Assembly: GCF_057098645.1 (NCBI RefSeq)
Contig: NZ_CM169472.1
DNA: 64,000 nt
Direction: 5' to 3' (one strand)
Shown here: positions 55,623-55,845 of the stretch, in pieces
Layout: each line of letters starts with the position of its first letter
Position numbering within the stretch: the first letter of the stretch is position 1
The notes under the pieces: generated by a model
Databases searched by the model: none
What the model saw: the letters and a program-made list of their open reading frames with translations, nothing else
Told to the model about the DNA's origin: nothing
Position numbers and translations under genes: made by a program

Positions 55623-55845
55623 TTTTCGTGAATTAATTAAAAACACGAATCACGTTGTTTTATGAAAGTTACACAATGGTTAACTAAAGTCACAAATTTT
55701 GTATGTTTGAACTGTGACGGATTTCGCACTCTATTTTGATAACTCATTATTTATCAGTGCATTAATGTTTTTAGTAGTTGATATACAGATCACGCAGTTA
55801 ACATTTCATTAAAATACGCCTTGCTTTTTATGATTCGTGATTTAA
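55623..55845. promoter_or_regulatory. Divergent paaA / paaZ promoter region with PaaX-operator-like TGATTC/GAATCA motifs
   Basis: TTCGTGAATTAATTAAAAACACGAATCACG near 55625-55655 and TATGATTCGTGATTT near 55828-55842; AT-rich divergent intergenic region. Confidence 0.45.

Follow-up and report, generated by a model that had tools for sequence, protein, structure and literature searches.

Canonical PaaX operators at an internally deleted phenylacetate cluster of O145:H28-type Escherichia coli

The divergent paaA/paaZ promoter region of the 64-kb window, which is the whole stretch of DNA analyzed here, carries PaaX operators that are already known from the E. coli phenylacetate cluster, and a third such operator lies at the paaXY promoter. 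The combination of canonical operators with recent loss of the enzyme that makes the inducer very probably leaves paaABCDEF' and paaZ permanently repressed, and the sites show no sign of selection. The boxes have been inherited by a Shiga-toxin O145:H28-type lineage; the finding is real but ordinary, and the internal deletion is a small lineage detail, not a new kind of system. As the sites are textbook PaaX operators, their significance beyond annotation is slight. Below, we discuss the boxes and their conservation, the deletion, and the readings under which the operators might still be doing something other than silencing the remnant genes.

PaaX boxes of the paa cluster

The paaA/paaZ divergent intergenic region occupies positions 55601-55884 (284 nt) and has one hexamer on each side, GAATCA at 55647-55652 and TGATTC at 55831-55836. 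A sequence-only reading had proposed that motifs of this type flank the divergent promoter, and they do, but its span of 55623-55845 takes in just one half-site of each operator. The complete boxes consist of inverted TGATTC/GAATCA hexamers about 26-28 nt apart, and all of them occupy a promoter or 5' leader position in a paa transcription unit. The Pa box, the PaaX operator of the paaA promoter (55614-55652, minus strand), reads TGATTC-N27-GAATCG, has one mismatch, and ends 13 nt before the paaA GTG. Its counterpart at the paaZ promoter, the Pz box (55831-55870, plus strand), reads TGATTC-N28-GAAATA, has two mismatches, and ends 14 nt before the paaZ start codon. The third, the Px box of the paaXY promoter (50946-50983, minus strand), was absent from the earlier reading; it reads TGATTC-N26-GAATCG with one mismatch and ends 1 nt before the paaX ATG. 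No further intergenic PaaX site beyond the paa core was found within the 64-kb window.

The informativeness of these matches depends on how much of the motif is required. For the bare hexamer TGATTC, the window has 33 copies where 40 are expected, which is no enrichment, and the hexamer is uninformative alone. The 15-mer WWTRTGATTCGYGWT, which we take to be the published PaaX motif, matches only the two intergenic sites in the 64 kb when up to one mismatch is allowed (0.24 matches expected; 3 of 100 shuffles reach two), and the Pz box fits it perfectly. Allowing up to two mismatches yields 5 matches against 3.5 expected, which is uninformative. The two-part pattern TGATTC-N26-28-GAATCA, with at most one mismatch in the right half, is found at three sites in 64 kb against 0.54 expected, a count reached by 1 of 200 shuffles, and two of these sites adjoin paaA and paaX on their upstream side. 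The two-part match at 43195-43233 lies within a 585-aa ORF; it was rejected as a PaaX box and treated as a chance occurrence.

Conservation in E. coli and across genera

Alignment with K-12 MG1655 reveals differences at 22 of the 284 intergenic positions. None of these falls in the Pa box or in the CRP-like and IHF-like sites discussed below, and two fall in the Pz box (55838 and 55869), so that the Pa box is identical to its K-12 counterpart at 39 of 39 positions and the Pz box at 38 of 40. The Px box matches at 37 of 38 positions, the window being nearer the consensus than K-12. On alignment with K-12, the boxes are orthologous to sites characterized experimentally in K-12 and W. When eight divergent alleles from E. 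coli are compared, variation within the boxes is confined to the spacers, save at one half-site position: the fifth base of the Pz right half is T in the window, where the other seven alleles have C.

Beyond E. coli, sampling one genome per species with PaaA gave 80 loci. In 58 of them paaZ and paaA are divergent, and paaK and paaX usually lie downstream; one further locus (L014) starts too near paaA for paaZ to show, and 21 loci, mostly from Bacteroidota, show no paaZ or paaX in the vicinity and provide controls. All 43 Enterobacterales species possess a box with at most one mismatch no more than 100 nt upstream of paaA (41 perfect, two with one mismatch), in which the spacing is 26-28 nt and the end lies 12-38 nt before the start codon. 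None of the 21 paaX-less control loci has a box within two mismatches upstream of paaA. Among the 41 distinct Enterobacterales sequences, all but one of the 12 half-site positions carry the full 2.0 bits of information, the last one (position 6 of GAATCA) carries 1.7 bits, and spacer positions range from 0.1 to 1.3 bits, a phylogenetic footprint in which the half-sites are conserved and the spacer is free. A second box on the paaZ side is present in most Enterobacteriaceae with a more degenerate right half (GTAACA, GAAACA or GAACCA), and conservation of the Px box extends to Citrobacter, Enterobacter and Klebsiella. Because the box is found in every Enterobacterales species sampled and in none of the controls, the observation is real and far beyond chance; together with the K-12 identities and the conservation of the Pa box across genera, it upholds the earlier assignment of the motifs as PaaX operators of the divergent Pa and Pz promoters. 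The comparison also yields, as a by-product, a clean footprint of this box across genera.

Acinetobacter and Psychrobacter (loci L052, L055-L062 and L064-L070) have a paaZ/paaA region without the TGATTC/GAATCA box, the best matches showing 2-3 mismatches. PaaX of Moraxellaceae is only ~38-40% identical, and the paaZ/paaA region there contains recurring repeats of the TGATAC...GTATCA type. The repeats suggest that PaaX half-site specificity may have shifted in this family.

Gene order and the internal deletion

A sequence search identified E. coli O145:H28-type chromosomes as the closest matches around the finding, with 99.4-100% identity. In the best match, RM12761, the RefSeq annotation of the minus strand lists ydbD, pdxI, paaY, paaX, a paaK fragment, paaF, paaE, paaD, paaC, paaB and paaA, and continues past paaA with paaZ, tynA, feaB and feaR. 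The window's paaA (54671-55600, minus strand; 309 aa, GTG start codon, 3 substitutions relative to K-12) is intact, as are paaB, paaC, paaD and paaE (52027-54659, minus strand), the thioesterase gene paaY (49422-50012, minus strand) and paaZ (55885-57930, plus strand; 681 aa, 6 substitutions relative to K-12); overall, paaABCDE, paaZ, paaX and paaY differ from K-12 by 0-6 substitutions each. The repressor gene paaX (49994-50944, minus strand) is likewise intact and encodes 316 aa with 3 substitutions relative to K-12. Its product has the PaaX, PaaX_M and PaaX_C domains (PF07848, PF20803 and PF08223 each present in Pfam), so an intact cognate repressor is encoded. Two genes are damaged. In paaF (51272-52030, minus strand), the final 11 residues are replaced by 8 residues from paaK-derived DNA, and the ECH_1 domain match of the product reaches residue 247. 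Only a 3' remnant of paaK is left (51045-51299, minus strand), comprising the last 84 codons and the AMP-binding_C_2 subdomain alone.

Both lesions trace to a single deletion. BLAST against K-12 (L002) returns two collinear blocks, 58200-51297 of the window matching 5328-12232 of L002 and 51300-49421 matching 17184-19063, which meet at a junction at 51297-51300 with a T-run microhomology of 3-4 nt; the sequence missing here corresponds to K-12 L002 ~12233-17183. The 4,951 bp removed comprise the last 33 nt of paaF, the whole of paaG, paaH, paaI and paaJ, and the first ~1,058 of the 1,314 nt of paaK (~80%). What is left falls short of a functional paa cluster (paaZ, paaABCDEFGHIJK, paaXY), with paaG, paaH, paaI and paaJ gone, just 84 codons of paaK left and paaF altered at its C-terminus. 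With 84 C-terminal codons encoding the C-terminal subdomain only, the PaaK ligase is non-functional. The sequence-only reading had spoken of paaK as deleted and of the epoxidase genes as those remaining. The ligase is indeed lost in effect, but the lesion is larger, running from the 3' end of paaF through about four-fifths of paaK, and the survivors are not only the epoxidase genes, since paaF', paaZ, paaX and paaY are also left.

Among 5,426 complete E. coli genomes, 25 carry the junction, and wherever a serotype is recorded for these it is O145:H28-type. In the same set of 5,426, the retained 3' end of paaK is found in 3,165 and the deleted 5' part in 3,140. These totals differ by exactly 25, as many as there are junction carriers, and therefore exclude a second paaK copy in the deletion carriers. 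The analysis thus provides, as a by-product, a precise map of a lineage-specific internal paa deletion in O145:H28-type E. coli, which had previously been counted as carriers of the pathway. In strain UTME-3, the nearest relative with an intact cluster, an IS3-family element is located between paaJ and paaK (L003 4603-5816), inside the interval deleted in O145:H28, and an IS-associated origin of the 4,951-bp deletion is possible.

The flank beyond paaY differs too. In the window paaY is followed by pdxI after 231 bp (49191-49421), and in the corresponding K-12 stretch (L002 19063-22001) by ydbA; comparison of window positions 48000-58200 with K-12 found no ydbA, a large autotransporter pseudogene, downstream of paaY. 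Between the pdxI start codon (49188-49190) and paaY, a 173-bp segment (49193-49365) is inverted relative to all four relatives compared, and the inverted orientation was found in none of the 5,426 complete E. coli genomes. One inversion breakpoint lies in the loop of the strong paaY terminator hairpin and destroys the hairpin (in the relatives, -24.7 kcal/mol, z -6.8, with a U7 tail). The other, 2 nt before the pdxI ATG, deprives pdxI of its ribosome-binding site and promoter region. This inversion could be strain-specific or an assembly artefact. An Rfam scan of the whole window placed no RNA family in the paa region; matches outside it were the ALIL pseudoknot, an IS3-family frameshift signal (41662-41778), the sok antitoxin RNA (29880-30031) and the RydC sRNA (30591-30654).

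Inheritance or selection

The best account of the operators is that they were inherited without change and that the deletion is recent, not that they were preserved for silencing; they would be present because the deletion is too young for them to have decayed. UTME-3, which has a complete paa cluster, possesses an intergenic region 100% identical to that of the window, and it shares with the deletion carrier RM12761 the protein accessions for PaaX, PaaY, PaaA, PaaB, PaaD and PaaE. Divergence within the deletion lineage amounts to 2-6 SNPs per 14.6 kb, at which level intact boxes are no more than the chance expectation. The earlier word "kept", in so far as it suggests retention for a purpose, accordingly finds no support, given the identical region beside a complete cluster in UTME-3 and the decay of neighbouring genes.

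Purifying selection on the operators, in which silencing an orphaned NADPH-consuming epoxidase without its downstream enzymes is beneficial, is an unlikely account of the same data. It would fit the exact Pz box in all 25 carriers, the position of the three intergenic SNPs among carriers (55743, 55792 and 55815), all of which miss the boxes, the single PaaX protein accession shared by three annotated carriers and UTME-3, and the one synonymous difference that separates the window's paaX from that of RM13514. These features, however, have to be set against the complete identity of the UTME-3 region, where the pathway is whole, and against the low divergence of the lineage. The genes supposedly worth silencing are themselves decaying, with paaC frameshifted in RM13514, and lesions also affect upstream genes: every strain compared has a broken feaR, RM13514 a broken feaB and the window a broken tynA.

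Inheritance without selection is the reading that we carry forward, and the decay of the surrounding route is described here in its own right. In the window, tynA (58178-60451, plus strand) carries a G-to-A change at 60184 that creates a stop at codon 669 of 757; of the five sequences compared, the window alone has it. The activator gene feaR (62245-63150) is a pseudogene with an internal stop that leaves just a 219-aa ORF in the window; three annotated deletion carriers and UTME-3 also have a broken copy. Because UTME-3 has an intact paa cluster, its broken feaR indicates that the phenylethylamine route was disabled before the paa deletion. The RM13514 sub-lineage (L004) has a frameshift in paaC (7059-7804) and an internal stop in feaB (13951-15450), lesions that show decay of the remnant pathway to be continuing. 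The comparison thus also documents the erosion of the whole phenylethylamine-to-phenylacetate route in the O145:H28-type lineage (feaR, tynA, feaB and paaC).

Promoters and expected repression

The positions of the Pa, Pz and Px promoters are tentative, having been read from weak hexamers. A scan of the Pa/Pz and Px regions found no consensus sigma-70 promoters or terminators, and the lack of a consensus promoter at Pa, Pz and Px fits weak, activator-dependent promoters. Two putative activator sites were recognized in the sequence. A CRP-like site, TGTGACGGATTTCGCA (55713-55728), lies between Pa and Pz and is identical in K-12 and nearly invariant in the eight E. coli alleles, and an IHF-like site, TATCAGTGCATTA (55752-55764), is invariant but for one base in one of the eight. 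Both presumably have the roles described for them in the literature. At Pz, the left half-site overlaps a -10-like TATGAT at 55828-55833, and the left half-site of Px overlaps an equivalent -10-like TATGAT; transcription would then begin near 55841 at Pz and near 50970 at Px. At Pa, the -10-like hexamer TAACTT (55671 to 55666, minus strand) would imply a transcription start near 55659, the CRP-like site falling at about -61.5, so that the Pa box would span approximately +8 to +46, between the likely start and the ribosome-binding site.

In E. coli, the PaaX site has been defined as TGATTC(N27)GAATCA; Pa and Pz are repressed by PaaX and Px is autoregulated by it, and competition between PaaX and RNA polymerase is reported for Px and Pz but not for Pa (PMC9493321). 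The layout of the window agrees with these reports. The overlap of half-site and -10-like element at Pz and Px means that bound PaaX should exclude RNA polymerase there, which fits the reported competition, and a Pa box located between start and ribosome-binding site would block a later step, which fits the different mechanism reported at Pa. The true inducer is phenylacetyl-CoA, not phenylacetate (PMC9493321), and phenylacetyl-CoA, but not phenylacetate, inhibits PaaX binding (PMC4498308); both binding, in vitro and in vivo, and release by phenylacetyl-CoA have been reported for the K-12/W sites (PMC9493321, PMC4498308).

From these elements a simple mechanism can be proposed. PaaX, a GntR-type repressor, would act at Pa and Pz through inverted hexamers ~27 nt apart and at Px through the third operator. 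The deletion has taken out PaaK, the sole enzyme known to make the inducer, and with paaX, the autoregulated Px and all three operators intact, paaABCDEF' and paaZ would not be inducible by phenylacetate. Since phenylacetyl-CoA is the only inducer known and PaaK is what makes it, permanent repression of the remnant genes is expected. A literature search found no expression or binding data for the O145:H28 lineage. If the locked-off prediction is true, the lineage would provide a natural example of a regulatory circuit frozen by the loss of its inducer-making enzyme.

One caveat concerns Pz. Over the 52 nt searched (55825-55876), the Pz allele differs from K-12 by three substitutions, at 55838, 55869 and 55872; an exact copy is present in 26 of the 5,426 genomes, namely the 25 deletion carriers and UTME-3, and most E. 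coli carry the K-12-like GCG...GAAACA version. The window's right half, GAAATA, is one step farther from the consensus than the GAAACA of K-12, and repression of paaZ could consequently be weaker. A promiscuous CoA ligase or some other route could in principle supply some phenylacetyl-CoA. It is nonetheless quite improbable that repression is incomplete or irrelevant, with the remnant genes expressed through a weak Pz, through CRP/IHF activation or through phenylacetyl-CoA from another enzyme. Such leakage would draw on the substitutions within the right half-site (55869) and beside the left one (55838), and on the intact CRP-like and IHF-like sites, but the Pa box matches the K-12 operator at every base, other genera naturally have a degenerate Pz right half, neither paaX nor Px is damaged, and the carrier genomes have no second paaK. 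More doubtful still, and very unlikely in our judgement, is a rewired function in which PaaX is retained as a constitutive repressor with targets beyond paa, or in which PaaABCE and PaaZ are induced by aryl-CoA or phenylacetyl-CoA from a different enzyme. Finally, the notion that the motif matches are chance copies of a common 6-mer in AT-rich intergenic DNA has next to no probability and is refuted by the motif-rarity counts and the 43-species conservation: chance would account for the lack of enrichment of TGATTC alone, but the rarity of the extended and two-part motifs is significant, the boxes occupy positions orthologous to the K-12 operators, and half-sites and spacing are kept throughout the 43 Enterobacterales species and missing in the controls.

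Comparison with known systems

The preferred reading, that canonical operators were inherited and now probably hold the remnant genes off, places the window close to systems that are well described. Compared with the Pa, Pz and Px operators of K-12 and W (Ferrandez et al. 2000; Fernandez et al. 2014, via PMC9493321), the locus, the positions and the TGATTC-N26-28-GAATCA architecture are the same. The window's cluster differs in lacking paaG, paaH, paaI, paaJ and most of paaK, and its Pz has three lineage-specific substitutions; without most of paaK, the cluster cannot make the inducer. The half-site consensus and relief by phenylacetyl-CoA are also common to the pac promoter of E. coli W (Kim et al. 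2004; Galan et al. 2004; via PMC9493321, PMC2770484) and to the sty/paa promoters of Pseudomonas sp. Y2 (del Peso-Santos et al. 2006; via PMC9493321, PMC2770484). In those cases, the pac, sty and paa sites outside the core extend the PaaX regulon to peripheral pathways, whereas the window has no such extra intergenic site.

Among pathogenic relatives, the sections of Cooper et al. (2014; PMC3893438) considered here report that O157:H7 and O55:H7 have lost the whole paa cluster, with OI-67 in its place. The same sections count O145:H28 as carrying the phenylacetate genes and do not mention an internal deletion. O157:H7/O55:H7 and the window belong to the same broad EHEC lineage and have both lost phenylacetate catabolism, but they have done so in different ways: O157 and O55 by loss of the entire cluster, and the window by loss of an internal segment of 4,951 bp that leaves the repressor, its operators and the epoxidase genes in place.
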